DNA of 53,143 nt from a virus (Duplodnaviria; Caudoviricetes). The notes beneath the pieces are model-generated. The model had not been told where the DNA came from and did not search any database. It was given only the letters and a program-made list of their open reading frames with translations. The stretch covers positions 1 to 53,143 of IMG/VR virus record IMGVR_UViG_3300046028_008563; one strand, given 5' to 3'. Of the stretch, positions 23,555 to 50,257 are shown piece by piece (positions within the stretch are counted from its first letter, which is position 1; every line of letters starts with the position of its first letter). The translations under genes and the position numbers were made by a program.

Positions 23555-23743
23555 TCCTTTTTTTGGGATTGTGCGCAGAATCTTTCTTGGGCTGGTGTCA
23601 CCCTTCAAGACGCGCCAGCGAGGCGCCGCTGACAGCCCCACCCCACTTTTCTCTTGCCAGCCGCCGCCGCCCCTAAATCCTAATATGAATCAATAAAATA
23701 AGGCAGGCGGCGGCAAGCTCAAGCCACGCGCACCGCTGCCAGC

Positions 23744-24619
23744 TCATCCACCCTTGACGGGGTAGGGCAGGCCGATCATCGGCTTCGTCGGGCGCTTCCT
23801 GTCGCGCTGCCAGACGTAGGCGTGATTGCCCGGATGCCACACCTTGCCGATCCTGCCCGACGCAAGGCAGCGCGCCAAGAAGCTCTCCCCGCTCTCGCCC
23901 TGCCAGCGCTTCAGCTCGCACGCCTGCTCAAGCTGGCGGGTGGCGTACTGCCAGCCCTTCTCGTCATTGACCAGCTTGGAGATCGTGCGCTCGCTGATCA
24001 CATCCCCCGTGGCGAGGTCCACCGTGTGCGTGCGGCCCTTGGCGCGGCCCTCGTAGCTCCAGCCAAGCGCCTTGTAGATCCCGCCGATATGCCCCGGCTT
24101 GAACACCTCGCCCGCCGCGTTCCTGCGCTCGACCGGGTCCGCGTAGGAGAGGATCGCGTGGAGCTGGGGATGCGCCTCGATGAGCGCCCGCTGCGCCCGC
24201 GACGCGAACCAGCTCTCGGCATTGTATGGCTCCTCATCGGCCAGCACGAGGCGGTTGCACTCCAGCGCCCCCACGACGCCGTCTCTCACAGGCCCGACGC
24301 CGCACCAGGCGCGCAAGATCCGCTCGCCCATCCCCTCGCCGTAGGTGATGACGCCGACAAGCTCGGGCTTCACCACCCCGCCGCGCGTCTTGTACAGCCC
24401 GTAGCGGGCCACAGCAGGCGCCGGATTGCGAGCGTAGTGGTGGGTCCGCAGGTAGGCGCACGACGTCTCATAGTCCAGCTCCTCGACGCCGTAGAGCCGC
24501 GTGTCCATCACCGTGTGGTGCGGCACCCAGCGCTCCCGCTTGTGGCTCCAGCGCTGCGCCCATTCGACGAGATCGAGCTGCGCAGACGGGGCGGCGGGAG
24601 GCGTGTGGCACTTGCTCAC
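23744..24619 (-). CDS. Mom-like (GNAT-fold) DNA modification protein
   Basis: HHY, LVGVITYG, LECNRLVL, NAESWF, ILSYADP and GHIGGIYKA.GW.YEG motifs; GTGA-coupled start. Confidence 0.82.
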   Translation of the reverse strand: MSKCHTPPAAPSAQLDLVEWAQRWSHKRERWVPHHTVMDTRLYGVEELDYETSCAYLRTHHYARNPAPAVARYGLYKTRGGVVKPELVGVITYGEGMGERILRAWCGVGPVRDGVVGALECNRLVLADEEPYNAESWFASRAQRALIEAHPQLHAILSYADPVERRNAAGEVFKPGHIGGIYKALGWSYEGRAKGRTHTVDLATGDVISERTISKLVNDEKGWQYATRQLEQACELKRWQGESGESFLARCLASGRIGKVWHPGNHAYVWQRDRKRPTKPMIGLPYPVKGG

Positions 24620-24978
24620 AGCCCGCTCTCCCCGCCGAGATCCTCGACAAGCGAGCGCCCCAAGCTCTTGCGCCACGCCGCGACCAGACGCCCCCACGCG
24701 TCCCCCACCACCTCGCCTTGCGGGCCTGTGGCGGGGATGACGTAGCCGTCCACAGACCAGCCATCGACCCGCCACGACTTGAGCCGCGGCAGGTAGTGGA
24801 GGATCGCCACAAGCTCCAACTCGGAGCGGCAGAGATAGAGCGCGGTCCCATCCTCGCCCTCGCTGTGGAGGGCCACGGCGGCGCGGGGGAGCGCGATCTT
24901 GAGCCGCGCCTGAAGCTCCTCAAGGGTGCGCGCCCGCTCACCCCCAAGCGCGCTCGCGACGGACATGCACGCGCTCAT
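24616..24978 (-). CDS. Hypothetical protein
   Basis: Coupled between DHFR and the Mom-like gene. Confidence 0.6.
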   Translation of the reverse strand: MSACMSVASALGGERARTLEELQARLKIALPRAAVALHSEGEDGTALYLCRSELELVAILHYLPRLKSWRVDGWSVDGYVIPATGPQGEVVGDAWGRLVAAWRKSLGRSLVEDLGGESGL

Positions 24979-25595
24979 CACACACCTTCCTTGAGCCACA
25001 CGCTGGACAGATCCGATCCCATGTCCGGCTCATACAGCGCCACATGCACCGGGTCGCGCACGAGCCGCAGCTGCGTCCAGCCGTGCGGCGCCCCCTCCTC
25101 GGCGGGGCGGTCCATGCGCGCCGCCACCACCCACCCGTGCCACGAGAGCGCAGGGAAGGTCACATCATGCGCCCACCCTTCGGGCTGGTGGATCACGCTC
25201 AGGTGAATCACGTCCACCACGTCCGCCTCAAGGGCTGCGCGGTAGACCTCCCCGCCGCCGATGATGACGATGCCGCCGCCGCCACGCCCCTCGAACTTTG
25301 CCGCCGACTGTGCCGCCCAGATCGCCGAGTTGATGTGCTGCTCAACCGTGTACGGATCGTTGTCCTCCGGGCGCTGCATCGTGTGGCTCAGGATGATGTT
25401 GTGACGGCCCTTGAGCGGCCTGTGCTGCTCGGGCAAGCTCTCCCAGGTCTTGCGCCCCATGATGACCGCCTTGCCCTTCGTTACCCGCTGGAACAGTGCC
25501 ATGTCGCCCTTGATGCGGGGCCATGGCATCCCGCCCTGAAACCCCAGCTCCCAATGCGGCCCGACCGCTGCGATCAGCTCAACGTGCTGCCTCAT
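24978..25595 (-). CDS. folA: Dihydrofolate reductase
   Basis: LIAAV, MPW...[36 protein letters not shown]. Confidence 0.96.
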
Positions 25596-26509
25596 ACCGC
25601 CACCTCTCCCTTGATCGCCGCGTGGCACCTGTAGCCCGCCAGCTTGATCTGATCCGCCGTCCATCCATCCACGCTCTCCAGCGAGCCTGCCAGCTCAAGC
25701 TCCGGCGCGTCGAACGGCTCGCGCCCCAACTGCTCTCTCACCTGATCCAAGTGATTCAGGTAAATATGCGCGTCGCCCAGCGTGTGAACAAAGCGCCCCG
25801 GCTTTAGTCCTGTCACGCGAGCGACCATGTGCGTCAACAGCGCGTAAGATGCGATATTGAAGGGGATCCCAAGGAGCGCATCCCCGCTCCTTTGATATAA
25901 CTGACAATCGAGTCTTGCGCCACCTGTAATATAGTCTCCACGGCGCACATAGAACTGAAATAAAAGGTGACAGGGCGGCAGTGCCATCTGATCCAGCTCC
26001 GCCACGTTCCAGGCGGAGACGATGAGGCGGCGGCTGTCGGGGTTGCGGCGGATCTCATCGATGACCCACGCGATCTGGTCGATCCAGCGCGTCGGGCTCC
26101 TGTCTTTAGCAATGTTGTGGTGCATGCGCCCGGGCTCGTAGCTCCACATACTCCCCGGCTGCGGCACATCAAGGAAGGACGCGACCTGATGGCCCCACGA
26201 GCGCCACTGCTTGCCGTAGACCGGGCCAAGCTCGCCCCCCTCGCGCTCCCATGCGTCCCAGATGTGGACGCCCTTCTCTTGCAGCTCGCGGGCATTGGTG
26301 CTGCCGCGCAGGAACCACAGCAGCTCCTCCACCACCCCGCGCCAGAACAGGCGTTTGGTGGTCACAGCTGGAAAGCCCTGCGCGAGATCGTAGGTGGATT
26401 GGTGCCCAAATATGGAGATGGTCCCCGTCCCGGTGCGGTCCTCTCGGCGCTCGCCCTCGCTCAGAATGCGGTGCAGAAGGGCGTGGTATGTCGTGTCGTG
26501 TGGGTTCAC
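25592..26509 (-). CDS. thyA: Thymidylate synthase
   Basis: [48 protein letters not shown]. Confidence 0.97.
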
Positions 26510-26961
26510 TTTGAGCCTCCAAAGAGTGCGGTGTGGATCATGGCGCGGGGCGGCATCACCACCTCGCGCACCTCGATGAAGCTGTCTTGCTGCTCGTAGA
26601 TCGCCAAGAGCTCCACGGCGCGATCCCCGTCAAGGAGCGCCACGAGCGCAAACAGCGCCTCCGGGTCGGTGTCGTGGAGCGCGAGCAGCGGGCAGCCGTG
26701 GGCGCGTAGCAGCGCGGCTCCTGTGCGCGGGCGGACGGCCACGCCAAGCCCGGTGGCGATCCGCGGCAACTCCACGACGCGCAGCGGGCGCTCCTCATCG
26801 AGCAGCTCTGCGACGTCGCGAGGGACGGCGACAGGGAGTAAGGCGACCCAGCGGCGCTCCCCGAACATGTCCGCCTCGCAGATCGTGGCGGTCGGGGCGT
26901 CGTGCGCGGTGCATCGGGAGATGGCGCCCCAGCGGGCGGCAGGCTTGCGGTGTGTGGTCAT
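26506..26961 (-). CDS. Hypothetical protein
   Basis: GGAG RBS; coupled on both sides. Confidence 0.6.
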
Positions 26962-27878
26962 GGTGTCTCCAGTATGAGCTTGACTTGATTGGTGGTGGTG
27001 TTCGCCACCGTGGCGATCTGTTCCACGCTCCCGCCCGCGCCGCGCATCGCCCACACCGCGATCCTCAGCAGCGCATCAAGGCGCGCACGAGCCTCTTGCT
27101 CAAGCTCACGCTTGACCTTGAGCCCGGCCTTTTTGGCGACGTCGCGCACCACCCCATCGCTCACGTCGAAGGCGGCGGCTACCTCTTTGGTGGCGAGCCC
27201 CTGCTTGAGCAGCGCTGCGATATTGGCGTTGCGCTCGCTCTGATCACAGCCGCGCATCGTGACGCCGCGCCGCTTGAGCGCCGAGAGGACCGTGGAAGGG
27301 GAGAGCTCGAAGCGCTTGGAGAGGGTGTAGCTACCCACGCCGGACTCGTAGAGCCTGACGATCTCCATGTCCCGCGCCTCTCCGGTCAGCGTCTTGAGCC
27401 GCCCCGTGTCATCCTGCGCCGCCTTCTTGGCTGCCCACAGCTCGCGCCTGCGAGCGTTGCGGGCGAGGCGCTTCACATCCACCTTGCCCACCCGCTCGCG
27501 TATCTTCGTCTTGGGGGCGGCGGCCCGCTTGGCTCGTCGCTCCTCCACGAGCCGCTTGCTCCGCTCTTCATCCGCCCGCCTCAGCGCCGCTTGCGCCTCA
27601 CGCCGCGCACGCACTGCCTCTTTGTCGGGCGGCACCGTGGGCGCCTTCTCCTTGACCTTCACAGCAGGGGCAGGCGGCGGCGGCAAGCTCTCAGCGACGC
27701 GGGGCAGGGGCAGCTCGTGATACGCACACCAGCGCGCCACGTCGTCCGCGCCGTCAAGCCCCAGCTCCTCGGCGATCTCCGCAGCGGTCCACCCGCTCGC
27801 GAGGCAGTCGGCGAGCGCGTCGCGACTGACCTCCTCGTCAAGATCCAGATCGAGCTTGCCCGGCTCACAGCGGCTCAC
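26958..27878 (-). CDS. Multi-HTH DNA-binding protein
   Basis: About four HTH-like units (GWTAAEIAEELG, GVGSYTLSKRF, GLATKEVAAAF, GGSVEQIA). Confidence 0.7.
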   Translation of the reverse strand: MSRCEPGKLDLDLDEEVSRDALADCLASGWTAAEIAEELGLDGADDVARWCAYHELPLPRVAESLPPPPAPAVKVKEKAPTVPPDKEAVRARREAQAALRRADEERSKRLVEERRAKRAAAPKTKIRERVGKVDVKRLARNARRRELWAAKKAAQDDTGRLKTLTGEARDMEIVRLYESGVGSYTLSKRFELSPSTVLSALKRRGVTMRGCDQSERNANIAALLKQGLATKEVAAAFDVSDGVVRDVAKKAGLKVKRELEQEARARLDALLRIAVWAMRGAGGSVEQIATVANTTTNQVKLILETP

Positions 27879-28456
27879 TTCACCACCTCCCCTGTCTGCG
27901 CGGGCGGCGTCGCGCCCGTCTGCCCCTGGTAGTGACTCCCCAGTTCCTTCGACCCATACGGGTGATCCGTCACGCTGGAGAGGCGGGCGACCTTGAACTG
28001 CCCCAGCGGCGCCCGGTCAAGGATGCGGATCGGGCGCGGCCCCGCGTTGTGCAGCTCAAGCGTCACCTGCCCCTTGAAGCCCGGATCGCACCAGCCCGCC
28101 GTGACGTGGATCGCGAGGAACAGCCGCCCGATGGATGAGCGCCCGCACACCTCGATCGCGAGGTCAGGCGGGATCTCCACATGGTCCAGCGTCGTGACGA
28201 GCGCGCACTCCCCCGGCTTGAGCAAGAGCCCCTCGACGCATGGATCGTGGAGGTACTTCGCGCCCGTGATGCCGCCCGGCCCCACCACGATCTCCCCCTC
28301 GGCGTCTGGATCTGGTCGCTTGGCGCCGCCCGACAGGTCCACGACAAAATCGATAGACGCGGGCTGCACTCTTGCCGCGTCTGGTGGTGGGTCCACCACG
28401 AGGCCGCCGCCAGCCGCCAGCCGCCGCTTAATATCTCGATCTGATAGAATGGTCAT
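27875..28456 (-). CDS. dcd: dCTP deaminase
   Basis: ILSDRDI, QPASID, GRSSIGRL...H.TAG..DPGF.GQ.TLE, YG......HYQGQ. Confidence 0.93.
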   Translation of the reverse strand: MTILSDRDIKRRLAAGGGLVVDPPPDAARVQPASIDFVVDLSGGAKRPDPDAEGEIVVGPGGITGAKYLHDPCVEGLLLKPGECALVTTLDHVEIPPDLAIEVCGRSSIGRLFLAIHVTAGWCDPGFKGQVTLELHNAGPRPIRILDRAPLGQFKVARLSSVTDHPYGSKELGSHYQGQTGATPPAQTGEVVK

Positions 28457-28803
28457 TCGATGTTCTCCGCTGCTCTCAGCTTGTTCCGCACCGTCTTCGC
28501 ACACACGTTGTATCTCGCCGCGATCACGTCCCATGTCTCACCCCGCGCCCGCGCCGCCCGCACCTCATCGAGCGGGAGATCCTTGCGAGGCTTGCCCCCT
28601 CTGCCCTCCCGCTCCTTGCGCGCCGCCTTGCGCTGCTCAAGCGTGAGCGGCGGTCTCAAGCTCTGGCGCCGCTGCTCACGGCTCATCTCCAGCTGGCGCA
28701 TCACGCGGCACACCTCATCGACCGTGACGCCCTGATCCCAGGCGATGTCGTCGATGGTCCAGCCGCTCGCCATCGCCTGCTTGACCACCTCAGCGGGGAG
28801 CAT
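28453..28803 (-). CDS. Double-HTH small protein
   Basis: GWTIDDIA and GETWDVIAARYNVCAKTVRN. Confidence 0.7.
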   Translation of the reverse strand: MLPAEVVKQAMASGWTIDDIAWDQGVTVDEVCRVMRQLEMSREQRRQSLRPPLTLEQRKAARKEREGRGGKPRKDLPLDEVRAARARGETWDVIAARYNVCAKTVRNKLRAAENIE

Positions 28804-29080
28804 CAGCCGCCCCCTTGACGAGCGCCATCAGGTCGCCCCCGCACGTCCCACCCTCGACGCACCACAGCTCATCCACGAGCGAGATCACCACCTGCTTGCG
28901 CTGCGGCCCCGCGACCACGATCCGCCACGCCGCCATGTCGAGCTGCATCAGCCGCACGCCTGCCACCTCCCCACACAGCAGCGCCCGCGCCGTCTCTTGG
29001 AGGTCTGCGCGCCTGTCACGCCGCAGCCTCGCCAGAGCGAGCGCGCCATCTGCTCTCTTCACCTGCTCACATGCGCTCAT
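28790..29080 (-). CDS. Hypothetical protein
   Basis: GAGGTG RBS; fills the operon. Confidence 0.55.
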   Translation of the reverse strand: MSACEQVKRADGALALARLRRDRRADLQETARALLCGEVAGVRLMQLDMAAWRIVVAGPQRKQVVISLVDELWCVEGGTCGGDLMALVKGAADAPR

Positions 29081-30545
29081 CGCTCACCTCCCATCCCCGG
29101 ATCACATAAGCAGGCCCGACCCACACAGGCTCGCCGCTCATCAGCAGGCCGCCCGCGTCACAGGCTATCAGGGTGCGCAGACAGCTCGCCCCGATAGCGC
29201 GGGCGGCGGGCGGCGGCACCGCATTGCCGATCCGCTTGATCCAGCCCTGCTTGGAGTTGCCATCGAGCTTGATCCAGCGCCCATCCTCGCCACAGGGCTC
29301 AAAGCCTTGCAGCGCGAACAGCTCGAGCGCGGTCAGCGGGCGGTGCCATGTCCCATCCTCCGCCTCGATGACAGCGTGGATCGGGCGCTTGTCCTCCAGT
29401 GCTGGCAGCGGCCCCGCGCCGTCCAGCTCCACAAGCGGCACCCTCGGATCTGCGCAGCTCGCCCAGCTGACGTCCACGTTTGCATGAGCGATGACCGCGT
29501 GAGCTGGATCCTGCCAGCCGTTCACCCCGTAGCCCCCATTCTGGCGCCCGCGGCGCGTCGCAAGCCGAGGGTCGGCAACCTGGAGCGCCGTGTTCTGGAT
29601 GCTGGCAGCGCCGATCACAGCGTGCGTCGGGCTCGCCCACCCCGTCACACCCAGCGCACCCTCACGACGGCTGCACACGCTGCGAGGGTCGCAGATCGCC
29701 CACATGCCATTGTCGATGCGCGCCTCGCCCACGACGGTCCCGCAAGCCGCCTGCCACCCATTGACCCCATACACACCCGAGCGAGGCGCACACGCGACGG
29801 CGACGCTCTCAGGCAGCGCCCGCCAGTCCTTGCCAGCGGGGATCAAGGCGAGCCGGATCCAGTTGAGCAGGCTCAAGCGCGGCAAGGCGTGCATCGCCCC
29901 GCCCTCGGCGCTGTGAGGCAGCGGCACGGGCAGCGCCTCCAGCACCTCCCCGATCCCGCGCACGCGCTGCATGGGCGGCTCATAGAGGAACTCCGGCACC
30001 TGTGCGCGGTGCCTCGCCACGCCGAGGAAGCGGCGGCGGTGCTGCGCGAGCCCGCCCAGCTCGCCGCAGTCGTGCGTCGTCTCCCTCCACGCGTACCCGT
30101 AGGAGGCGAACAGGGCGGCCAGATCATCAAGCCACTCCCTGCCCCGCGACTGGATGCGGGGCACGTTCTCAATCAGAATGAGCGGCGGCGGGCTGTCCTG
30201 CCACGCTTCCAACGCGAGCCAGATCCCCCGGAACGCCAGCGACGAGATCGCCTGGTACTCAGGCGTCACGCTCTGGGCTTGCGGCAGGCAGCCGGAGAAC
30301 GCGACGCACGGCGGCGAGCTGATCAGCACGTCAGGCCGCACGGGCGACAGGGCGCGCAGCTCATCCGGCGTCATCGTGGCGAGGTCTGCCACCGTCGCGG
30401 CGTCGCCGCAGATCGTCTCGTGGTCGCGGCAGGCGGCGGCGTCGAAGTCCACCGCGAAAGCCTGCTCAAGCCCCGCATCCTTGAACCCGCGAGACAGCCC
30501 GCCGAGGCCCGCAAACAGCACTCCGAACCTGTAAACTTTGCTCAT
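29067..30545 (-). CDS. DNA (cytosine-5) methyltransferase
   Basis: Motif I FAGLGG, IV SPPC, VI ENV, VIII Q.R.R, X IGNAVPP. Confidence 0.95.
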   Translation of the reverse strand: MSKVYRFGVLFAGLGGLSRGFKDAGLEQAFAVDFDAAACRDHETICGDAATVADLATMTPDELRALSPVRPDVLISSPPCVAFSGCLPQAQSVTPEYQAISSLAFRGIWLALEAWQDSPPPLILIENVPRIQSRGREWLDDLAALFASYGYAWRETTHDCGELGGLAQHRRRFLGVARHRAQVPEFLYEPPMQRVRGIGEVLEALPVPLPHSAEGGAMHALPRLSLLNWIRLALIPAGKDWRALPESVAVACAPRSGVYGVNGWQAACGTVVGEARIDNGMWAICDPRSVCSRREGALGVTGWASPTHAVIGAASIQNTALQVADPRLATRRGRQNGGYGVNGWQDPAHAVIAHANVDVSWASCADPRVPLVELDGAGPLPALEDKRPIHAVIEAEDGTWHRPLTALELFALQGFEPCGEDGRWIKLDGNSKQGWIKRIGNAVPPPAARAIGASCLRTLIACDAGGLLMSGEPVWVGPAYVIRGWEVSDERM

Positions 30546-30925
30546 CTCACCACCTCCACGCCCGCTGCCCGCCTTGCCTCTTCAAAAGCCCGCACCACCC
30601 CTTGCGACACGGACTCCCCATCCTCGGCATCCTCCAGCGGCCACACGGTGACGGTGGCCAGCCAGCCGCCGCCGCTGACCTGGTGTACTGAGCAGGTCGC
30701 CACGCCCTCGCGCTCCCCGCAGATCACCCCGTTCTTGTTGACCGCCCACCCCCACTGAGGGTGCCGCTCGCGGAGCTGGAGCAAGGCGGCGCGGATCTCC
30801 TTGCTGTGCGTGCTGCCCGTCCCGTAGCAGGCCGCGCAAGCCTCGCGGCGCACCACCTCATCACCCCAGAACTCATGCACCTCGCGGGTCTCCCCGCAGC
30901 CCTTGCAGGCGTCGCAGATGCTCAT
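30542..30925 (-). CDS. DnaJ-like zinc-finger protein
   Basis: CDACKGCG...CAACYGTG. Confidence 0.7.
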   Translation of the reverse strand: MSICDACKGCGETREVHEFWGDEVVRREACAACYGTGSTHSKEIRAALLQLRERHPQWGWAVNKNGVICGEREGVATCSVHQVSGGGWLATVTVWPLEDAEDGESVSQGVVRAFEEARRAAGVEVVR

Positions 30926-31434: not shown

Positions 31435-31566
31435 CTCCTCTCACGGTACATAGCGGCCCGGCCTCTGCCGATCCTGGCGCCCTCGTAGCGCCTGCCGCTG
31501 GTCACTCCCCGGCGCGGTCGCGGGCCGCGCTGCCAGTCTGTGAGCTGGTCGGGGTGGGGGGTCAGG

Positions 31567-31809: not shown

Positions 31810-31945
31810 CTCGTCTCTCCTTGTAGATACTCCACGACCATCACCACCACGAGCGCGAGGGCCACAGACCCGCACAGCATCAGCACCTCATGTGCCGTCC
31901 GCTGCGTCGCGCTCTCCGCTATCAGCAGGGCGCCTCCGATCTTCG

Positions 31946-32293: not shown

Positions 32294-32360
32294 AGCATCA
32301 CCTCCTGAATCGACATTAGCGGCTGGATGATCGCGTGTCCATAGGGGACTGGATTAAAAT

Positions 32361-33543: not shown

Positions 33544-33544
33544 G

Positions 33545-42555: not shown

Positions 42556-42923
42556 CCAGCTGCAAGGCTCCTGACCACCGCGACGCTGCCACCACCCTCT
42601 ACGACGCGCTGCGCGATGAGCTTCGCGCCCAGCGCTTCGACGCCAAGCAGGTGGATGGCACGGCGTTGCTGATGATGGGCGACCTCTTGGAGTGCACCAA
42701 GGGCGTGGTGAGCGATCTCTTGGAGGGGCGTGAGGTGTGCGCCCGCGTTCTGTGTACCCTCAAAGACAGGACGGCTGGCGGCGGCGGCCTGCAAGGTGCG
42801 CGTGACCAGCGGGCGCGGGAGTGGCAGAGGATACAGGAGCGGCAGGACGCGGCGATCGAGGGCGTCAAGGAGGAGGTCGCGGCGGGCAAGGTGGAGACGT
42901 GGCAACCGGGGATGTCTGGGTGA
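42552..42923 (+). CDS. Hypothetical protein
   Basis: GGAGGT RBS; ATGA overlap. Confidence 0.6.
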   Translation: MTSCKAPDHRDAATTLYDALRDELRAQRFDAKQVDGTALLMMGDLLECTKGVVSDLLEGREVCARVLCTLKDRTAGGGGLQGARDQRAREWQRIQERQDAAIEGVKEEVAAGKVETWQPGMSG

Positions 42924-43058
42924 TATGTTGATTGTGTCCACGCCCACCGTGCTTCAAGACTGTGGACACGATGTGCCTATATCGAGCGTGTGATGTCTAT
43001 GGGCGTGGAGATCACACGAAAAAAGTGCAGGATCGTGGATAAAAAATAGGTTGATTGG

Positions 43059-43086
43059 TTGATTCATTTGGTCAATCTGTTATAAT
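43059..43086 (+). promoter_or_regulatory. Extended -10 sigma70-type promoter
   Basis: TTGATT-N16-TATAAT with a TGn extension, in an AT-rich intergenic region. Confidence 0.75.
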
Positions 43087-43090
43087 AGTT

Positions 43091-43112
43091 GGGCAGGCGG
43101 CGGCGGCAAGAG
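43091..43112 (+). repeat. Representative copy of the dispersed motif GGCAGGCGGCGGC(GGC)AAGAG
   Basis: 22/22 identical to the reverse complement of 32732-32753; related copies at 23702, 27668, 33612, 37316, 41365, 44594, 45960 and 49071. Confidence 0.75.
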
Positions 43113-43145
43113 CTGTGCGTCGCGAGGCTTTTGAGAGGTGATGTG

Positions 43146-43379
43146 ATGAGTCATTGTGCAGCGGGGCTTGAGCCCGCCCCGAACATCGTCGAGTTCGTCT
43201 ATGAGAACCACCGCGGGGAGGTGCGCCCCGTGCGCATCGACGCGGCGACGACTCACCTGTGGAGCGGCACGACGGCGTACTACCCGGAGCATCAGCCGCT
43301 GCTCACCGCGTGGGATATGGACCGGGGTGAGGAGCGGACCTATGCGCTCAAGCGCGTGCGGTCGTGGGGAGGTGTGTGA
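43146..43379 (+). CDS. Stand-alone WYL-domain protein
   Basis: VEFVYENHRGE...R......W.G.T.YYPE.Q.LL.AWD.DR...RTYAL. Confidence 0.8.
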   Translation: MSHCAAGLEPAPNIVEFVYENHRGEVRPVRIDAATTHLWSGTTAYYPEHQPLLTAWDMDRGEERTYALKRVRSWGGV

Positions 43380-43735
43380 TGCGGGCCTGGTTGGTGGTGT
43401 TGGAGCGGCGCGGCGTGTTCATCTGGCCGCTGCGCGTGGTGGTGCATGTGGCTGCGCTGTTGCCTGTGGGGTGGCTCGTCAGCCTTGGTGCGCATGAGCG
43501 TGATTTTGTCGTCACTGCGTGTATGGGCATCCTGCTTGGTGGGCTCACCACGACGCTGACGAGCCATGTGCATGTCTTCGGGCTCATGATCCTTGAGGCG
43601 CTTGAGCAGTCGGCTCGTGCTGCGCTTGAGGATCTGCGTCAAGAGGTGCGCAGGGTTGAGATGGGCGAGGAAGCGGCGGCGGCTCAAGCTGGCGCGCTGT
43701 CCGTTTTTGAGCAAGATGGGGAGGGTGTGCGATGA
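43379..43735 (+). CDS. Membrane protein
   Basis: Two hydrophobic segments; TGATG coupling. Confidence 0.55.
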   Translation: MRAWLVVLERRGVFIWPLRVVVHVAALLPVGWLVSLGAHERDFVVTACMGILLGGLTTTLTSHVHVFGLMILEALEQSARAALEDLRQEVRRVEMGEEAAAAQAGALSVFEQDGEGVR

Positions 43736-43947
43736 GTAAGTGGTCAAGATCGGGGTTGACGCCCCGTGTCGCCATCCCCGGCGTGTGGGTGACGGTCGGC
43801 GCTGATGGTGTATCCAGCGTGAGCATTGAGCCGCAGGCGATCCGGGCGTCGTGTCGTGAGGCGACGGCGCACGGCTACACCGCGCAAGAGGCGCTGCTCA
43901 AGGCGATCAAGGCGTGGCAGCGGGAGAAGGCGAGGGCCGCACGATGA
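43732..43947 (+). CDS. Hypothetical protein
   Basis: ATGA coupling. Confidence 0.6.
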   Translation: MSKWSRSGLTPRVAIPGVWVTVGADGVSSVSIEPQAIRASCREATAHGYTAQEALLKAIKAWQREKARAAR

Positions 43948-44180
43948 AGCGTTCTGACTATGCCCGCGCCTCGCTGGCGATAGGTATGCTGACCACCGTG
44001 GGCTCGCTCACCCTCTTGGATGAGGGTGGCGCCGATGAGCTCATCGCCCGCCTCGACAAGCAGCGCGAGCAGGAGCTTTGGGCGCTCGGGCTGGGTCCGC
44101 GTCGCACACCACCCAAGCCCGTTGGGCAGCGTCGCGCCAAGAGCGCCGCCCGCCGCCGCCGCCTGAGGGGGCAGGGATGA
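43944..44180 (+). CDS. Hypothetical basic protein
   Basis: ATGA coupling on both sides. Confidence 0.55.
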   Translation: MKRSDYARASLAIGMLTTVGSLTLLDEGGADELIARLDKQREQELWALGLGPRRTPPKPVGQRRAKSAARRRRLRGQG

Positions 44181-44575
44181 CCGCCTGCCCCAGCTCCATC
44201 GTCTTCGACGTCCCCGGCAAGCCTCGCCCCAAGGCCCGCCCGCGTGTCACCTCTCACGGCACCTTCACCCCCAAGCACGTCGCGGACTGGGAGAAGGTCG
44301 TGGGGCAGTACGCCCTCCTCGCGGGGCTGCGGCCGGTGGATGGTGCGTGTGAGGTGCGCGTGTGGCTGTGTGGCGTGGGGCTCACAGGCGACGTGGACAA
44401 CTACCTCAAAGCGATCCTCGACGGGCTCAACGGGGTCGCCTACGCGGACGACAGGCAGGTCAAGGCGGCGCACGTCTACAAGCTCGCCGGGCGCGGGGCG
44501 CTGTGTAGGGTCGAGGTGGTGCGGCTGGAGGTGGGGTGGGAGGAGCAGGTGGTGATGCCGGAGGTGGTGAAGTGA
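44177..44575 (+). CDS. rusA: RusA-family Holliday junction resolvase
   Basis: VPGKPRPKARPR and DVDNYLKAILDGLNGVAYADDRQV. Confidence 0.93.
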   Translation: MTACPSSIVFDVPGKPRPKARPRVTSHGTFTPKHVADWEKVVGQYALLAGLRPVDGACEVRVWLCGVGLTGDVDNYLKAILDGLNGVAYADDRQVKAAHVYKLAGRGALCRVEVVRLEVGWEEQVVMPEVVK

Positions 44576-44623
44576 GTAGACACACGGGGCGGCGGCAGGC
44601 GGCGGCAAGAGAGAGGTGGTGAG

Positions 44624-45097
44624 GTGAAGAAGGGCGATCGATTAAGCGAGAAGCAGCGCCGCTTTGTGGATCTGTACATGGGGGAGGCGGCAGGCAACGC
44701 GACCGAGGCGGCGCGTCTCGCTGGCTACAAGGGGAGCGATGGCACGCTGCGCGTCGTCGCGACCGAGAACTTATCAAAACCTAACATTCAAGCGGCGATC
44801 CGTGAACGGGTCAGCAAGCGGCCAGAGGTGGCGAGCCGGGATGAGCGACAGGAGTTCTACTCGGCGATCATGCGCGGGGTGGATCCGTACAGCCGCGACG
44901 ATGGCGAGCCGATCCCGATCAAGGACAGGCTCAAGGCGTGCGAGACGCTCGGCAAGATGCAAGGCGACTTCCTTGAGAGGCACGAGGTCAAGCTGACGGG
45001 CGAGACGACGACGACGCTCAGGATGGGCGAGCTGTCTGACGCTGCGCTGCTGGAGCTGGTCAAGGCGGTCGCGCCCAAGACGGGAGGTGAGCAGTGA
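44624..45097 (+). CDS. terS: Terminase small subunit
   Basis: LSEKQRRFV..Y...NATEAARLAGY...A.ENL.KP.I and DRLKA.E.LGK. Confidence 0.92.
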   Translation: MKKGDRLSEKQRRFVDLYMGEAAGNATEAARLAGYKGSDGTLRVVATENLSKPNIQAAIRERVSKRPEVASRDERQEFYSAIMRGVDPYSRDDGEPIPIKDRLKACETLGKMQGDFLERHEVKLTGETTTTLRMGELSDAALLELVKAVAPKTGGEQ

Positions 45098-45636
45098 GCG
45101 CATGTGACCTGATCCCTGATGAGCATGACGTGGTGCGTGAGTACGCCACGGCCCGCGAGGCGGCGAGCGTTTACGGTGCGCTGCGTGAGAGCGCACCTGG
45201 CACCTGCCGCGCACAGGACTACTCCAAGCTCGTGCTCGCTGGCGTCCAGATGAACGCCGGGCCTGACGCGGGCATGTGGCAGATCGAGGCGCTCGATGCG
45301 CTGCGTGACCTTGAGCGGGCCTTTGAGGCAGCGCGGGCTGTGGTGCTCACGTGGGAGGAAGGCGAGGGGATGTGGCGTGTGTGGTGGCAGGTGCGCGTGG
45401 AGCAGGTCAGTCTGCGCAAGGTGCCAGACGTCGCCCGCTCGACCGCCGACCGCATCACCCGCAGCGTGGATCGCGCCGTGCAGGACGCGCTTGATGCCCG
45501 CGAGCTGCGCCGCCTCACCGTGAGCGAGGGCCGCAGCGCCGAGCTCAACAGCCCTGCTCCACAAGTGCGCACCTGCATGATCCTGTATGGCGATGAGACC
45601 TTTCGTGACGCGAAGAGCAAGGAGGTGGTGAAGTGA
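45094..45636 (+). CDS. Hypothetical protein, possibly a late transcription regulator (sigma region 4-like)
   Basis: VSLRKV...ARSTADR HTH-like segment; upstream of late genes. Confidence 0.4.
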   Translation: MSACDLIPDEHDVVREYATAREAASVYGALRESAPGTCRAQDYSKLVLAGVQMNAGPDAGMWQIEALDALRDLERAFEAARAVVLTWEEGEGMWRVWWQVRVEQVSLRKVPDVARSTADRITRSVDRAVQDALDARELRRLTVSEGRSAELNSPAPQVRTCMILYGDETFRDAKSKEVVK

Positions 45637-45902
45637 GCACATGCAAGCGGTTCGTCCTGAACGTGATCGAGCGCAAGATGGGCGTGCGGCAGGCAGCACG
45701 CGCTGCTGGCTTTGCGCAGGGCGTGCCCTCACCCCAGGCCCGCCGCCTGCTCAAGATGGCCCAGCTCATCCGCGAGACTCCGGGGATGGCCGACGCGGTG
45801 GCACGCGATCACGCCCTCGCGCAGTCCGCCCTCGCCCGCGCCGCCGACAAGGCAGCCTCCGCCTCGGCGTGGCATGAGGCGCTCACGATCCTCAAGGGCT
45901 AG
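45633..45902 (+). CDS. Small HTH-like protein
   Basis: RFV......MGVRQAARAAGFA resembles a TerS N-terminal HTH. Confidence 0.55.
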   Translation: MSTCKRFVLNVIERKMGVRQAARAAGFAQGVPSPQARRLLKMAQLIRETPGMADAVARDHALAQSALARAADKAASASAWHEALTILKG

Positions 45903-46028
45903 CGTAGACAGCCAAGCTCACTACACCGCCCAACCTGTCTCACCTCAAAAAATGGGCATGGCAGGCGGCGGCGGCTGACTCGTGGTGCGTCAAGGGGGCC
46001 ACGTTCTGCACAGGGTAGAGGTGCACGC

Positions 46029-47558
46029 GTGGTGACACAGACCCTGACCCTACACGAGCCGCCCCACCGCTTGCGTGAGCGGGCAGAGGCAGAGCTTGCG
46101 CGCCGCTCGCTCGCGTACTTTGTGCGCTGCGCGTGGCACGTCGTGGAGCCGGGGACGCCGCTCGTGTGGAACTGGCACATCGACCTGATCTGTCAGCGCC
46201 TCGAAGCAGTCACCCGCAAGGAGTGTCTGCGGCTGGTCATCAACATCCCGCCGGGCCATATGAAGTCGCTGCTCGTGGCGGTCTTCTGGCCCGCGTGGGA
46301 GTGGCTGACACGTCCCGAGGAGCGCACCCTCTTCCTCGCCAACTCCGCCGACCTCGCAGCGCGTGACTCGCGCCGATGCCGTGAGGTGATCCAGAGCGAG
46401 TGGTATCAGCGCGTGCTGGCCTTGACGAGCAGTGAGCGCGGCCTTGAGCCGTGGACGCTCGCGGGCGATCAGAATGAGAAGATCAACTACGAGAACACCC
46501 GCCGCGGCTTCCGCGAGTGTCTCTCGATCGGCGCCAAGGTCACGGGCAAGCGGTCAGACAAGCAGGTCTTGGATGACCCGTATGACGCCAAGGAGCTCCA
46601 GATCGGCAGCCCGGAGCAGGTCGCCCGACGCCTCCACGAGGTGACGGCGATCTATGACGGCGTGCTGGCCTCGCGCTTGAACGACCTCGCGACAGGCGCC
46701 CGCGTGCTCATCATGCAGCGCCTGCATATGGATGACCTCGCGGCCCATTGTATCGCGGCGGGCTACGAGGTGGTGTGCCTCCCCACCGAGTATGACCCGG
46801 CCCACCCCCACGTCTGCCCCGATGACCCGCGGCAGGAGGCGGGTGAGCTGCTCTTTGAGGCCAAGTTCGGACGCGCTGTGATCGAGGAGATCAAGCGCAA
46901 CCCCCTGTCAAACTACGGGGGCCAGCACCAGCAGACCCCCCGCCCACAAGGCGGCGGGCTGTTCCGCGCTGCCCACTTCCCACGCTTTGACGTCGCGCCC
47001 ATCCAAGCCCCCGGTACCTGGTATCAGAGCTGGGACTTTCGCCACGGCGGCAAGGGCAAGGAGACAAGCTATGTCGTCGGCAACCTCTACTTCCGGCCCT
47101 CCGCAGCCCCCGCCACCGTCTACCTTGTGGATGTGGTGCGTGATCGCTGGGATCCTGACGAGAGCTTGCGGCAGTTCGACCTGCGCCAAGCCGACCCCCT
47201 GTGGGGCCGCGCCAAGGTGATCTTGATCGAGGAGAAAGCCGACGGCATCACGGTCCTGTCCATGAGACGGCGGCAGGTGGCAGGCATGATCCCGGTCAAG
47301 CCGCTCACCGACAAGGAGAGTAGGGCGCGGGCAGTGCAGCCGATCACGCAGTCCGGCTGTGTGCTGCTGCCAGAGTCCGCCCCGTGGCTCGCCGAGTGGG
47401 AGCGTGAGGTGTTCGCGTTCCCGGCCACCTCGCACGACGATCAGGTTGATACCCTGTCCCAGATGCTTGAGTACCTCCACGGCATCCTCAAGCCGAACTT
47501 CTCACAGCTCCCCACCTTCGCGGCCCGCAAGGGCCACGTCCCCTCACCGATCAGGTAG
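46029..47558 (+). CDS. terL: Terminase large subunit
   Basis: RLVINIPPGHMKS, LDDP, IMQRLH.DDL, IEEKA.G, HDDQVD. Confidence 0.95.
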   Translation: MVTQTLTLHEPPHRLRERAEAELARRSLAYFVRCAWHVVEPGTPLVWNWHIDLICQRLEAVTRKECLRLVINIPPGHMKSLLVAVFWPAWEWLTRPEERTLFLANSADLAARDSRRCREVIQSEWYQRVLALTSSERGLEPWTLAGDQNEKINYENTRRGFRECLSIGAKVTGKRSDKQVLDDPYDAKELQIGSPEQVARRLHEVTAIYDGVLASRLNDLATGARVLIMQRLHMDDLAAHCIAAGYEVVCLPTEYDPAHPHVCPDDPRQEAGELLFEAKFGRAVIEEIKRNPLSNYGGQHQQTPRPQGGGLFRAAHFPRFDVAPIQAPGTWYQSWDFRHGGKGKETSYVVGNLYFRPSAAPATVYLVDVVRDRWDPDESLRQFDLRQADPLWGRAKVILIEEKADGITVLSMRRRQVAGMIPVKPLTDKESRARAVQPITQSGCVLLPESAPWLAEWEREVFAFPATSHDDQVDTLSQMLEYLHGILKPNFSQLPTFAARKGHVPSPIR

Positions 47559-47560
47559 CG

Positions 47561-50257
47561 ATGACAGCCGACAAGACGATGCTCGCGGTGCTCAAGCGCT
47601 ACGGGCTCAAGCCCTCCACCTTCGCCGCGCCGCCTGAGCCGCAGGTGGTGCGCCTTGAGGAGTGGGCCGCTGACGACAAGGAGCCGCGTGAGCTGGTCGA
47701 GTCGCTGACGGGTGGCAAGCACGCGAGCGCCAAGCTCCTGCAGCTCGCCGAGGAAGATGAGGCGCTCAAGCCCTACCTCTCGGATATGCCCGCGCCCGAC
47801 GTCGAGATCGGCACGCCTGGCACGCCGATCTACGGCGGCATCCTGCGCGTGGACCCCTCCTACCGCATGTCGCCCTTTGTGGCGCGTGGTCACGCCTCCT
47901 CGCTCGGCGTGTATGAGGAGCACCTGCGCGAGCCGCTCGTGTATCAGTGCTTCCAGACGCTTCGCCAGCTGCTCGTGACGGGTAGCTGGACCATTCAGAT
48001 GCCGGAGCTCGCACAGGAGTGGATGACCCCTGCCCAACTCGGCGCGCTGGAGCGCGAGATCGACACGATCTGGTCGGCGCTGCTCAACACGGAGGATGGC
48101 TGGGACCACTACGTCGAGCACGCCGCGACCGCGATCATCTTCGGCTTCTCGATCTTCGAGGTGGTGTGGCGCCAGACCTCCAAGGGCTGGCTCCCCTCAC
48201 GGCTCGCCTTCCGCGAGGCGTCCACGGTGGACCAGTGGTTGATGACCGCACGTCAGGATCGGCTGGTCGGCGTGCGCTTTGCCACGGGCTCGCCCGGCTC
48301 CACCTACGTCCTGCCCGCATGGGGTGACACGCTCACCTCGCGCCGCGTCCTGCTCAACACGCTCGGCGGTCGGGGCAACAACTTCGAGGGCATCCCCCCG
48401 ACGCGTCCCATCGACACGCTGATCACCTACAAGAAGCTGCTGCTCACGATCGCGGCGGCGGCGGCGGAGCGCTTCGGGTCGCCCGTCCTGCTCGCCAAGG
48501 TGGACGCGGGGCTCAAGGATCTGCCGGGCTTTAACCCCTCACAGGAGCAGTGGGACGGCTTCATGGCGATCCTTGAGACGATGCGCGCGTTGGAGACCCC
48601 CACGCTCGCCGCGCCTCCTGGCCTTGACGCTGCCTATCTTGGCCCTCCCGGCACGATGCCGGACCTGCTCGGCCAACTGGAGTATTGCGACAAGCAGATC
48701 ATGCTGGCCTTCAGCAACCAGGGGAGCTTGCTCGGACAGGGCGCCCACGGCTCCTACGCGCTCGCTGAGGTGCAAGACAACCAGCTCCTGCGCTCCGCCC
48801 CCTATTACGCGCAGGTCATCACGCGCTCGCTCAACGGGCTCATCCGCGACCTGCTGCGCTCTCGTGGGTGGACGCTCCCGCAGTACCCGCAGATCAAGTG
48901 GCAGGTCGGCGGGGCCGCTGACGCCTCGCGCCTGCTCGCCGATCTCGGCTCCTTTATGTCGCAGGCTGGCAGTTGGCCGCGTGCTGCCCAGCAGCTCGGG
49001 CTGAAGCTCATGGGTCTGCCGGCTGACACGTTTGAGGCAGGGGATGCCTTTGATCCTCAAGATGACCAGCGGCAGGCGGCGGCGGCGGCTGATGCGCCCA
49101 CGCTCAACGCCGAGCATGGCGCTGGCTGTGGGTGTGGCGATGCGCTGACCGCGCTCGCCGAGAGCTACACGCCGCCCAAGGGTGTGCAGGATAACGCAGC
49201 CCGCGCCCTCGCGGTGCGTGAGGATAAGGTGGAGAGCGAGCGCGGCATGACCCCCGTGGGGATCGCCCGCGCCCGCGACCTCTCCAACGGCCGCCCCGTG
49301 AGCGAGGACACGCTGCGCCGGATGGTCGCCTACTTTGATCGCCACGAGAGCGACAAGCAGGGCGAGACGTGGGACGAGCAGGGCAAGGGGTGGCAGGCGT
49401 GGCACGGCTGGGGTGGTGATGAGGGCTGGCGTTGGGCCAAGCAGATCGTTGAGCGCCTCGATCGCGAGCGTGACGAGCTCGCCGACGCGCTCGCGCAGGG
49501 TGAGCTTGTGCAGCTCGCGGAGAGCGACTGGCCGCCCGCCGCCGCCGCCCTGATGGATGCCGCCGAGGCAGAGCTTGCGAAGGCGTTTGGGCAGATCCAG
49601 CGCGCCCAGCAGCAGCGGTGGCGTGAGCTGATCCGCGACAACACCGACGCCGCCGATCTCCTCGCAGACCGTGACCAGATCCGGCGTGAGTACCAGCCGC
49701 GCTACCTTGAGGCAGTGCAGCTCGTGATCGAGCAGGTGGGCGAGCGCGCTGGTGTGCAGCTCGGTAAGCAGCTCGGCGTGGAGCTTGGTATCCCCTTCGA
49801 GGTCACGCCAGAGCTCTCGCTGCTCGCCGCCAACGTGGCAGACGAGATGACGAGCCGCACGATCGGGCTCATGTCGTCTGCACAGGTCGAGCGGGAGCGA
49901 GGCTCCTCACGCCTCGCGGTCCCCATCCTCGCGACGGCGACGCTCACGCTCATCGCCTCACGCGCCGTCTCTGGCGCCTTCAACGCTGGTCGCGATCGCA
50001 TGATCCAGTCCGTGCTTGAGGCGTTCAAGAAGCGCACCGAGCAGACGCCCCGCTTCATCGCGGAGCGCTCGGCGGTGCTGGACCCCGCGACCTGTGAGAC
50101 CTGCGCCGCGCTCGATGGGGTGCAGGTGCTCGTGGGCAGCAAGCGCTACCGCGACCTCTCACCGCCGAACCGCTGCAAGGGCGGGGAGCGGTGTCGCTGT
50201 GTCTGGATCTACCGCGTGCCAGCCGGCATCGCGGACGTGCTCAAGGTGGAGACATGA
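47561..50257 (+). CDS. Portal protein (Mu gp29/DUF935-like) fused to a central domain and a gpF-like minor head domain
   Basis: FGFSIFEVVW, AERFGSP, GSYALAEV; then GM.PVG.ARA.DL...WGGD.G; then D.ATCETC..LDG...CRC. Confidence 0.85.
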   Translation: MTADKTMLAVLKRYGLKPSTFAAPPEPQVVRLEEWAADDKEPRELVESLTGGKHASAKLLQLAEEDEALKPYLSDMPAPDVEIGTPGTPIYGGILRVDPSYRMSPFVARGHASSLGVYEEHLREPLVYQCFQTLRQLLVTGSWTIQMPELAQEWMTPAQLGALEREIDTIWSALLNTEDGWDHYVEHAATAIIFGFSIFEVVWRQTSKGWLPSRLAFREASTVDQWLMTARQDRLVGVRFATGSPGSTYVLPAWGDTLTSRRVLLNTLGGRGNNFEGIPPTRPIDTLITYKKLLLTIAAAAAERFGSPVLLAKVDAGLKDLPGFNPSQEQWDGFMAILETMRALETPTLAAPPGLDAAYLGPPGTMPDLLGQLEYCDKQIMLAFSNQGSLLGQGAHGSYALAEVQDNQLLRSAPYYAQVITRSLNGLIRDLLRSRGWTLPQYPQIKWQVGGAADASRLLADLGSFMSQAGSWPRAAQQLGLKLMGLPADTFEAGDAFDPQDDQRQAAAAADAPTLNAEHGAGCGCGDALTALAESYTPPKGVQDNAARALAVREDKVESERGMTPVGIARARDLSNGRPVSEDTLRRMVAYFDRHESDKQGETWDEQGKGWQAWHGWGGDEGWRWAKQIVERLDRERDELADALAQGELVQLAESDWPPAAAALMDAAEAELAKAFGQIQRAQQQRWRELIRDNTDAADLLADRDQIRREYQPRYLEAVQLVIEQVGERAGVQLGKQLGVELGIPFEVTPELSLLAANVADEMTSRTIGLMSSAQVERERGSSRLAVPILATATLTLIASRAVSGAFNAGRDRMIQSVLEAFKKRTEQTPRFIAERSAVLDPATCETCAALDGVQVLVGSKRYRDLSPPNRCKGGERCRCVWIYRVPAGIADVLKVET

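Follow-up and report, generated by a model that had tools for sequence, protein, structure and literature searches.

The virus record IMGVR_UViG_3300046028_008563 (Caudoviricetes; 53,143 bases, analysed at its full length and called the window here) represents an uncultured, high-G+C phage from lake water, and scattered through it is a 13-nucleotide (nt) GGC-repeat motif, GGCAGGCGGCGGC, present in 12 exact copies (10 on the plus strand and 2 on the minus strand) and 5 variants, for a total of 17 sites. The motif is real, neither a chance occurrence nor a by-product of (GGC)n or alanine runs, and it is probably a signal by which the phage controls its genes. The reading that we favor, at a probability of roughly 0.35, is that of a polar, protein-bound operator or roadblock site that would work like the stoperators of mycobacteriophages without belonging to their family.

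The excess of the motif over chance holds under each of several backgrounds. Markov models of orders 2 to 5 predict 0.03 to 0.49 exact copies against the 12 observed, and when one mismatch is allowed, there are 21 matches against 1.2 in dinucleotide shuffles, none of 100 of which reaches 21. Shuffling the synonymous codons of all called genes, in a way that keeps each protein and the codon usage of each gene (with a gene map that then lacked a holin-like open reading frame [ORF]), gives an expectation of 0.055 copies against 4 observed in genes, a number attained by none of 1,000 shuffles. The GGC-run context is equally distinct: of 63 maximal runs of three or more GGC units, 12 are preceded by GGCA and 3 by GGCT, with no other tetramer preceding more than 3, and the form interrupted by A or T occurs at all eight intergenic loci, while some 17 uninterrupted runs of four or more units lie in genes. 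Intergenic DNA, which makes up 5.7% of the genome (3,038 nt as first called), holds 7 of the 12 exact copies, and the k-mers present in the largest number of intergenic gaps are those of the motif (8 of 28 gaps). An initial annotation of this DNA had proposed an asymmetric, genome-wide site in the intergenic control regions and had asked for enrichment tests, and that proposal withstands the codon-shuffle, Markov, and GGC-run context tests.

Motif density in the phage is about 226 copies per megabase (Mb). By comparison, 240 loci related by their terL genes (3.22 Mb) hold two copies of the 13-mer, those among them with a G+C content of at least 0.62 (1.18 Mb) hold none, and 160 viral and genome terL loci likewise hold none. 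Five bacterial genomes of 5 to 10 Mb that carry the nearest terL relatives have 6 to 16 copies each, or about 1 to 3 per Mb, which is about the level of a reversed-pattern control. A string search of the literature for the 13-mer and its complement returned six papers, none on phages or bacterial gene control, as judged by titles and abstracts.

Copies and anatomy of the motif

Seven exact copies are intergenic (23702, 33612, 41365, 43092, 44594, and 45960 on the plus strand and 32740 on the minus strand), and five lie within genes (6413, 27669, 30428, and 49071 on the plus strand and 21336 on the minus strand). All seven intergenic copies named by the initial annotation, including that at 32740-32752 on the minus strand, are therefore present, and its coordinates were right throughout, but it had missed the exact copies at 6413 and 30428. 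It had also placed copies in low-complexity protein linkers, which is the case at 27669 (PPPPA) and 49071 (alanine), whereas the copy at 21336 is in a holin-like ORF and not in a linker, and that at 37315 has one mismatch. The five variants comprise one copy with a single mismatch, three of a GGCT type, and one rearranged, inverted copy. The sites, together with the promoter match adjoining one of them, are listed below (aa, amino acids; HTH, helix-turn-helix).

43092-43112, plus strand: motif copy GGCAGGCGGCGGCGGCAAGAG, 51 to 54 nt upstream of a 77/78-aa gene starting at 43143/43146 and located at a promoter's predicted +1
43059-43086, plus strand: sigma-70-type promoter match TTGATT-N16-TATAAT with TG before the -10 (10/12; score 11, background frequency 2e-4)
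41362-41382, plus strand: motif copy GGCGGCAGGCGGCGGCAAGAG, in the 69-nt gap between a 416-aa HTH gene and a 242-aa gene; pairs with downstream sequence in a predicted hairpin (-31 kcal/mol, z -4.3)
44588-44611, plus strand: motif copy that takes up the greater part of the 48 nt separating the RusA-like gene from terS and ends 12 nt before the terS start (44624)
45960-45982, plus strand: motif copy ending GGCTGACTCG, 69 nt upstream of terL (46029), with AAAAAT 6 nt upstream
33608-33634, plus strand: motif copy GGCAGGCAGGCGGCGGCGGCTCACTCG, in a divergent control region of 330 nt, with the XRE-ParA-ParB-like operon 185 nt downstream
32732-32752, minus strand: motif copy in a 56-nt gap, 53 nt upstream of a 112-aa gene; 22 nt identical to 43091-43112
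23702-23719, plus strand: motif copy GGCAGGCGGCGGCAAGCTC, 2 nt after TAAAAT; the sole intergenic copy that opposes its flanking genes, and a hairpin arm with 23651-23671
23651-23671, minus strand: rearranged copy GGCGGCGGCGGCTGGCAAGAG, inverted with respect to 23702 across a 30-nt A+T-rich spacer
28403-28425, minus strand: GGCT-type variant GGCGGCTGGCGGCTGGCGGCGGC, with GATATT 4 nt before it; intergenic, and 46 nt upstream of the dCTP-deaminase-like gene, if 28369 is the start of that gene
2983-2995, plus strand: one-mismatch copy in a 22-nt gap between two structural genes, ending 1 nt before the GTG start at 2997
6413-6425, plus strand: exact copy, sense in an 815-aa structural gene (AAGGG), 69 nt upstream of the next start
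49071-49094, plus strand: exact copy in the 898-aa Mu-type portal gene (RQAAAAAD), at the junction that corresponds to the end of a separate portal gene in the distant contig G006 (see below)
21336-21348, minus strand: exact copy, antisense in the two-transmembrane-segment holin-like ORF 21164-21568 (RRRLP)
27669-27689, plus strand: exact copy, antisense in the multi-HTH gene 26958-27878 (PPPPA linker)
30428-30440, plus strand: exact copy, antisense in the DNA methyltransferase gene (AAACR)
42773-42788, plus strand: GGCT-type variant, sense in a 123-aa gene (TAGGG); 90% identical over 30 nt to the copy at 21319-21348
32383-32395, plus strand: GGCT-type variant, antisense near the 3' end of the 112-aa gene

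The constant part of the motif is GGC-(A/T)-GGC-GGC-GGC, to which zero to two extra GGC units are added. The tail that comes next takes one of a few forms: AAGAG (41365, 43092, 44594, the minus-strand copy at 32752, and the minus-strand variant at 23671), AAGCTC (23702 and 27669), GGCTSACTCG (33612 and 45960), or CTGCRAGG (the minus-strand copy at 21348 and the copy at 42773). The near-identical pairs reported by the initial annotation hold, namely, 32731-32752 on the minus strand with 43091-43112 (identical over 22 nt), 41362 with 44591, and 33612 with 45960 (ending CTSACTCG). A longer paired element of 39 to 47 nt was considered and rejected, as identity drops to about 50 to 60% beyond the core; the exception is formed by the leaders at 32752 and 43092, which lie at the same distance of 53 to 54 nt from similar start regions. 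Neither the core nor its flanks have dyad symmetry, such as the inverted repeat that would suit a ParB dimer. The copies within genes fall in three reading frames and on both strands, and the peptides read across them are AAGGG, RQAAA, RRRLP, PPPPA, and AAACR.

Polarity, placement, and conservation

Transcription in the called gene map is divided into three blocks. A long plus-strand block begins with an XRE gene (33797) and the genes for ParA, a ParB-like protein, two HTH_36 proteins, a DnaC-like protein, DnaB, and the 416-aa HTH protein, and it continues through RusA, terS, terL, the Mu-type portal, and capsid and tail genes to a holin-like/spanin-like pair ending at 21869. A minus-strand block (21913-33466) encodes the Mom-like protein, DHFR, thymidylate synthase, the four-HTH protein, the dCTP-deaminase-like protein, and the DNA methyltransferase. 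Among the further predicted regulators are XRE proteins at 33797-34090 and 22247-22516, an HTH protein at 28453-28803, and a zinc-finger protein at 30542-30925. As initially annotated, copies of the motif precede terS, terL, and the XRE-ParA-ParB-like operon.

Ten of the 17 sites lie in gaps of 22 to 330 nt, and 9 of these 10 are co-oriented with the downstream gene; the coding sites are in the sense orientation in 3 of 7 cases, which brings the total to 12 of 17. Eight sites are within 100 nt upstream of a same-strand start codon, as are 7.7% of random positions (p 1.6e-5), and two sense coding copies are also start-proximal, such as that at 6413. From the first base of a site to the next same-strand start, the distances for sites near a start are 14, 30, 46, 46, 51, 53, 69, 69, 185, and 199 nt, with a separate GAGG-type Shine-Dalgarno sequence 3' of the motif.

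One copy stands at the start point of the best sigma-70-type promoter match. As the initial annotation had noticed, the copy at 43092 begins 5 nt past a TATAAT (43081-43086), which is the -10 box of the 10/12 match listed above, the only strong sigma-70-type promoter directly upstream of a copy. The minus-strand copy at 28425 has a weaker promoter match, and the other intergenic copies are at background level (scores of 5.5 to 7), a lack of upstream promoter-like sequence that fits sites within operons. Taken together, the polarity in gaps, the proximity to starts, and the copy at the start point of the best promoter argue for a function that is linked to transcription and sensitive to direction.

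Several sequence features accompany the copies. A -10-like hexamer composed entirely of A and T lies within 14 nt upstream in 4 of the 10 intergenic copies, against 4.8% of random intergenic positions. Five copies without an A+T hexamer (41362, 42773, 44588, and the minus-strand copies at 32752 and 21348) have the word GACA (in AAGACA, TAGACA, GTGACA, or GGGACA) 1 to 6 nt upstream, and no consistent promoter spacing could be fitted to this word. A promoter reading of the reverse strand was rejected, as TTGCCG-N16-TATTAT occurs only at 43109-43082 and is absent at the other copies. The divergent control region at 33549-33737 contains two copies of CATTTTGCTAAA, additional TGCTAAG and GCGCTAGG words, and a GTGGTCA-N12-TGACCAC palindrome beside the 33612 copy; these words are all but confined to this region and are probably local XRE or par operators.

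Folding of ten copies revealed no shared secondary structure: their shapes differ, and 41355-41425 alone stands out in stability (z -4.3). The inverted pair at 23702 (plus) and 23651-23671 forms a 12- to 13-bp stem just after the Mom-like gene, with a folding energy of -41.5 kcal/mol for the minus-strand RNA; within 23640-23730, the 30-nt spacer between the inverted copies is about 80% A+T in a genome of 68% G+C. This pair may be a terminator or stabilizer of the Mom-like transcript or may act at the DNA level, for instance, as an unwinding site. Elsewhere, strong hairpins, internal and terminal, occur in the late operon (51789-51904, 52841-52918, 21113-21163, and 21870-21912), one of them followed by TTTTCTTTT immediately 5' of the capsid gene ribosome-binding site; with hairpins inside the operon, late transcription must read through or restart.

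The phage has no close relative in the collections searched: among viral, genome, and metagenome contigs, terL identity to the window does not exceed 44%. A megablast search of 40000-50000 against GenBank phages gave no match, the 416-aa HTH and ParB-like proteins used as queries found nothing, and searches with the portal, a portal alignment, and a multi-HTH alignment gave nothing or only the contigs G006 and L047. An IMG/VR scan with the AAGAG form of the motif found 79 contigs, most of which were rejected as relatives because the match is coding sequence for the terminase Walker A motif (G-A-A-G-G-G-K-S); a scan with a 16-mer found at least 119 viral contigs, none with more than two copies among the matches listed.

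The informative relative is G006 (the same contig as L012/L328), a 16-kb sequence of 64% G+C with a CheckV estimate of 16%, of which L047 is a near-copy. It is syntenic with the window at protein identities of 35% (portal), 29%, 28% (major capsid protein), 29%, 25%, and 31%, and its terL gives no match. G006 contains three copies of the motif, all on the gene strand of the structural operon and two of the three with AAGAG, and shares an exact 18-mer with the window at comparable junctions. Its first copy is intergenic, upstream of packaging genes and after an A+T-rich TGATAT-N7-TTAAAT-CA, and the sequence before it resembles that before 23702 (86% identity over 35 nt). Its second copy, of the GGCT type, is near the 3' end of the portal gene, directly after a shared D-P-Q...Q segment and in the place homologous to 49071. 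The motif there is read as R-Q-A-A-A in the window and as A-A-G-G-G in G006, so nucleotides are kept while frame and peptide differ, which argues for selection on the nucleotides; the positional conservation that the initial annotation had set as a check is thus found at this one homologous position in one distant relative. The 898-aa portal of the window (47561-50257) corresponds to the G006 portal and the product of the next gene (528 and 374 aa in G006), fused through a motif-encoded alanine linker, which places the 49071 copy at a former gene junction.

Closer relatives, about 90 to 97% identical over 31000-50000, appear in four metagenome runs from lakes or of unspecified origin. In contigs from three runs, 49137-49474 is replaced by 17 other letters, a replacement that begins 43 nt after the 49071 copy and indicates that the portal junction varies in the population; the joints of other replacements (31560/31842 and 43381/43943) are not at copies, and several contigs of relatives end at copies. 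One contig (X3) has no listed change in 32732-32752 and six in the next 33 nt, and another (X2) has a 2-nt insertion in the GGC run, both being weak observations within about 30 nt of a contig end and among the 40 of 1,199 differences listed.

Candidate modes of action

The closest parallel is with the stoperators of cluster A mycobacteriophages (the L5 gp71 and TipsytheTRex repressors), which are described as having a 13-nt asymmetric core in many dispersed, near-exact copies, located at promoters and in short intergenic spaces, oriented with transcription, and numbering more than 20 in L5 (PMC9283540). The window resembles them in its asymmetric 13-nt core, in its many near-identical dispersed copies (12 exact and 5 variant), and its placement at a promoter and in short gaps; in orientation along transcription the parallel is partial, holding for 9 of 10 intergenic copies and for 12 of all 17 sites. 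It differs in that the sequences are unrelated, the motif here being a GGC repeat with variable units; in that its coding copies occur in either orientation; in that no two-domain (HTH plus Stoperator) repressor homologue is recognizable by sequence; and in that a Mu-type portal and parAB genes are present and any repression is putative.

Under the stoperator-like reading, the motif would be a cis-acting, direction-sensitive element to which, in its double-stranded form, a single sequence-specific protein of the phage binds. This protein would cover +1 to +21 of the 43059 promoter and block initiation there, and in the short gaps between genes of long operons, it would be a polar roadblock in the path of RNA polymerase. 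That a protein binds the site, and that binding represses, is inferred; the binder could be the ParB-like protein (34836-35975) or one of two HTH proteins, the four-HTH one (26958-27878) and the 416-aa one (40091-41341). The lack of a common fold, the exact antisense copies in genes, and the near-invariance of the 13-mer suggest that the motif is read as double-stranded DNA and not as RNA. The antisense exact copies at 21336, 27669, and 30428, together with the three reading frames, make polar control at the DNA level the more probable, and control at the RNA level the less probable, of the two.

Several observations weigh against this reading. Expression of the XRE-parA-parB operon should be maintained in a plasmid prophage, yet the 33612 copy lies upstream of it, and the coding copies as a group are not co-oriented (3 of 7 sense). 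Among copies, the number of GGC units (3 to 5) and the position of the interrupting A/T vary, with only the 13-mer constant, which is more variation than a protein rigidly reading all 21 bp through the major groove would allow. An RNA or non-template-strand signal would account just as well for the G-rich strand being the RNA-like one in 9 of the 10 intergenic copies. A sequence search of six HTH proteins against PDB sequences (E of 1 or below) found no match to the cluster A repressor (L5 gp71 family), and the 17 sites fall short of the more than 20 in L5. Finally, palindromic operators that would suit small XRE proteins adjoin the two main promoters, so classical immunity control may not need the motif. 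The unit variation, the copy before XRE-parAB, the mixed coding orientation, and the missing repressor homologue make the element at best stoperator-like and not a member of the stoperator family.

A second known class, the 13-bp start-associated repeats (SAS and ESAS) of cluster K phages, is described as asymmetric, nearly uniform in orientation, upstream of a subset of genes, and phage specific, with SAS located 3 to 7 bp from the start codon and containing a Shine-Dalgarno core (PMC3203893). The motif is like SAS in being asymmetric, 13 bp long, mostly in one orientation before a subset of genes, phage specific, and absent from host-like genomes; unlike SAS, it lies 14 to 199 nt from the start, is accompanied by a separate Shine-Dalgarno sequence, and has copies in the structural operon and inside genes.

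A possible though less probable alternative is a transcribed leader or non-template-strand signal that loads a processive antitermination factor (as nut/put, qut, or RfaH-ops) or that stabilizes or processes mRNA, and whose repetition along operons would renew the modification. The motif resembles the ops/JUMPstart element of RfaH, lambda nut, and HK022 put in being short, conserved, orientation dependent, and early in long operons, with hairpins farther inside. A copy is near the 5' end of each of the three main operons (32752 on the minus strand and 33612 and 43092 on the plus strand), that at 43092 being at the predicted +1; co-oriented copies continue along the late operon (44594, 45960, 49071, 2983, and 6413); and the first three late-operon hairpins given above, one with a T run just upstream of the capsid gene, would need read-through. 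The G-rich strand enters the mRNA in 9 of 10 intergenic copies, a tolerance of 3 to 5 GGC units suits single-strand recognition, the -10-like A/T hexamers precede 4 of the 10 intergenic copies, and the same arrangement recurs before the packaging genes of G006. Against this, the copies share no hairpin or fold, such as boxB or put, and have no Rfam match at E of 1 or below, the sole match in the window being an unrelated snoRNA at 7978-8021 (E 0.66), far from any copy. The three exact antisense copies in genes, where fewer than 0.06 of either orientation are expected, are left unexplained, and known systems have one or two sites per operon and not many. A Pfam scan of 43 of the 72 window proteins, 20 of which were also compared with PHROGs, found no NusG paralogue, N-like protein, or NGN or KOW domain; the one antiterminator-like match is a weak PHROG "Q-like" one (E 1e-4) to a zinc-finger protein. 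The E. coli ops consensus contains GGCGG, which is all that it has in common with the motif.

Less probable again, and best called doubtful, is a broader version in which a GGC-repeat element common to distant lake phages is read by a factor of the host or the phage in single-stranded form, either as nascent RNA or as the displaced non-template strand, and possibly folded into a two-layer G-quadruplex. Reiterated before many genes, such an element might, with the same low probability, keep RNA polymerase terminator resistant or gate each cistron.

It is unlikely that the sites form a dispersed centromere (parS) set for the phage ParA/ParB-like pair. The precedent is the plasmid prophage N15 (SopAB), described as having four palindromic, dispersed centromere sites, IR1 to IR4, with SopB silencing a nearby promoter (PMC7205306), and ParB spreading might likewise silence promoters here. 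The phage does encode both partners of a partition system on one replicon, as ParABS requires: ParA at 34087-34839 (PF13614, E 9e-39) and the ParB-like protein (PHROG 1033, E 9e-9, with a weak Spo0J match that includes a G-x-x-R-x-x-A segment and an HTH). One copy lies upstream of the par operon, the sites are single, scattered over the genome where coding constraint is weak, and in some cases near promoters, and a bound protein could silence these. Chromosomal parS sites, too, are palindromic. The motif, by contrast, has no dyad, unlike the four N15 palindromes, occurs in 12 to 17 copies, and is polar with transcription; its 9-of-10 polarity and start proximity are unexpected for a centromere. 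There is no cluster beside the par genes, better par or XRE candidates stand beside the par promoter (TTTTGCTAAA twice, TGCTAAG, and GTGGTCA-N12-TGACCAC), and the G006 copies are in a structural operon. Of the three mechanisms put forward in the initial annotation, the stoperator-like site and the leader or antitermination signal are thus favored by the 9 of 10 co-oriented copies, the 8 of 17 start-proximal sites, and the copy at +1, whereas the dispersed parS set is disfavored by the polarity and the lack of a dyad.

We consider it very unlikely that structure alone is at work, with four or more GG tracts forming a two-layer G-quadruplex or a GGC hairpin in mRNA or a displaced DNA strand that tunes transcription or translation. 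The 13-mer does consist of exactly four GG tracts with loops of 2, 1, and 1 nt, at least four tracts are kept in all variants though the A/T moves, the RNA strand is the G-rich one in 9 of 10 intergenic copies, and ViennaRNA with its quadruplex term places a G-quadruplex in 6 of 8 co-oriented leaders, 4 to 14 kcal/mol below the fold without it. Plain (GGC)n with four or more units would serve as well, yet all eight intergenic loci have the A/T interruption, and flanking AAGAG is kept in five copies here and in two of three in G006. Two-layer forms are weak, the model energies are uncertain, and antisense coding copies would yield C-rich RNA.

An explanation without any role in expression, for which we see very little room, holds that the copies are short homology linkers that promote module exchange at gene or module junctions, or the footprints of such exchange. 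They do lie at gene junctions, one strand holds 12 of the 16 core sites whatever the gene direction, the 18-mer shared exactly with G006 at comparable junctions coexists with protein identities of 28 to 35%, and the 49137-49474 replacement of the relatives begins close to a copy. The other replacement joints are away from copies, direct repeats within one genome would favor deletions, and the -10-like hexamers and the copy at a promoter start point are left unexplained.

Least probable of all is that a sigma-like or RNA polymerase-modifying factor of the phage recognizes the motif as the core of a class of phage-specific promoters. Although the motif is asymmetric, about 20 nt long, gene oriented, and 14 to 69 nt upstream of eight start codons, and although the multi-HTH protein has weak sigma-70 region 4 matches, it is G+C rich and lacks a meltable element, its two conserved parts are separated by a distance that varies by 3 nt, the terS leader would be at most 12 nt long despite a strong Shine-Dalgarno sequence there, and no phage RNA polymerase or sigma region 2 domain was found among the window proteins scanned. 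A sigma-54 reading was rejected, as the spacing does not fit the sigma-54 consensus in our own alignment.

Genome context and significance

The window is the whole IMG/VR record, with a CheckV estimate of 100% and about 68% G+C. An exact 126-nt direct repeat at its ends (4-129 and 53018-53143) implies that the real genome is about 53,014 bp and circular or circularly permuted, although the record is labeled linear. Genes were predicted with a self-trained codon model, one region being fixed by eye (the holin-like ORF 21164-21568), which resulted in 72 predicted proteins; a search of the window for tRNAs found none.

Several features of the genome stand apart from the motif. A nucleotide- and DNA-modification cluster on the minus strand (23744-28369) comprises the Mom-like, DHFR, thymidylate synthase, and dCTP-deaminase-like genes, with a 492-aa DNA methyltransferase farther upstream (29067-30545), a gene set that hints at modified DNA. 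The four-HTH protein encoded on the minus strand at 26958-27878 belongs to a rare family (10 matches in 5.8 billion clustered proteins) in which C4, C27, C53, and H56 near the N terminus are invariant and resemble a zinc site; two homologues, P0010 and P0011, are on contigs of 54 to 56 kb. Within the second HTH_36 gene, at 37045-37152, three direct repeats of about 30 nt (of the CACGGGTGTCACAGGGACACCCCCGTCAGG type, spaced by 34 and 44 nt and unrelated to the GGC motif) look like origin iterons inside an initiator gene. The tape-measure-like gene (1,330 aa) contains 204-nt tandem repeats of 75% identity at 18283-18743, with long GCC/GGC runs.

A further pattern concerns gene starts. Twelve of the 72 predicted proteins have cysteine at residue 4 (M/V-S/T/A-x-C), cysteine elsewhere amounting to 1.08% of residues (binomial p 2e-11). 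All 12 are encoded in the non-structural half and belong to unrelated families, including the Mom-like protein, RusA, and the multi-HTH protein. Their starts fall between 23744 and 45902, for example, at 24619, 27878, 29080, 30925, 32699, and 33046 on the minus strand and at 40091, 42552, 43146, 44177, 45094, and 45633 on the plus strand. In nucleotides, the pattern is RTG-AGC/ACC-NNN-TGY, often preceded by GAGGTG, and several of these starts come after motif copies. It may be a start-associated signal or an N-terminal tag.

The sequence of the motif and the phage lineage are new, while the general kind, dispersed asymmetric control repeats of phages such as stoperators and cluster K SAS, is already known; that the sites form an undescribed system, as the initial annotation suggested, is plausible but unproven. 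What sets the element apart is its triplet-repeat core with variable units, its position 14 to 199 nt before starts and off the ribosome-binding site, the retention of genic copies in tolerant linkers, and its occurrence in phages whose structural proteins are only about 30% identical. The portal copy, kept in another frame in a distant relative, is unusually clean evidence of selection at the nucleotide level, and the site itself is short, exact, and amenable to reporters in any sigma-70 host. Were the four-HTH or the ParB-like protein to bind it, this would mean a new mode of DNA recognition or a link between partition and gene silencing; if it is instead read as a single strand, the copies would make up a multisite, repeat-based system of processive control without a described counterpart. 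To our knowledge, genome-wide polar, asymmetric control sites have been well studied only in actinobacteriophages, as stoperators and SAS. The present phage suggests that whole-genome control of this style is more widespread and has arisen more than once.

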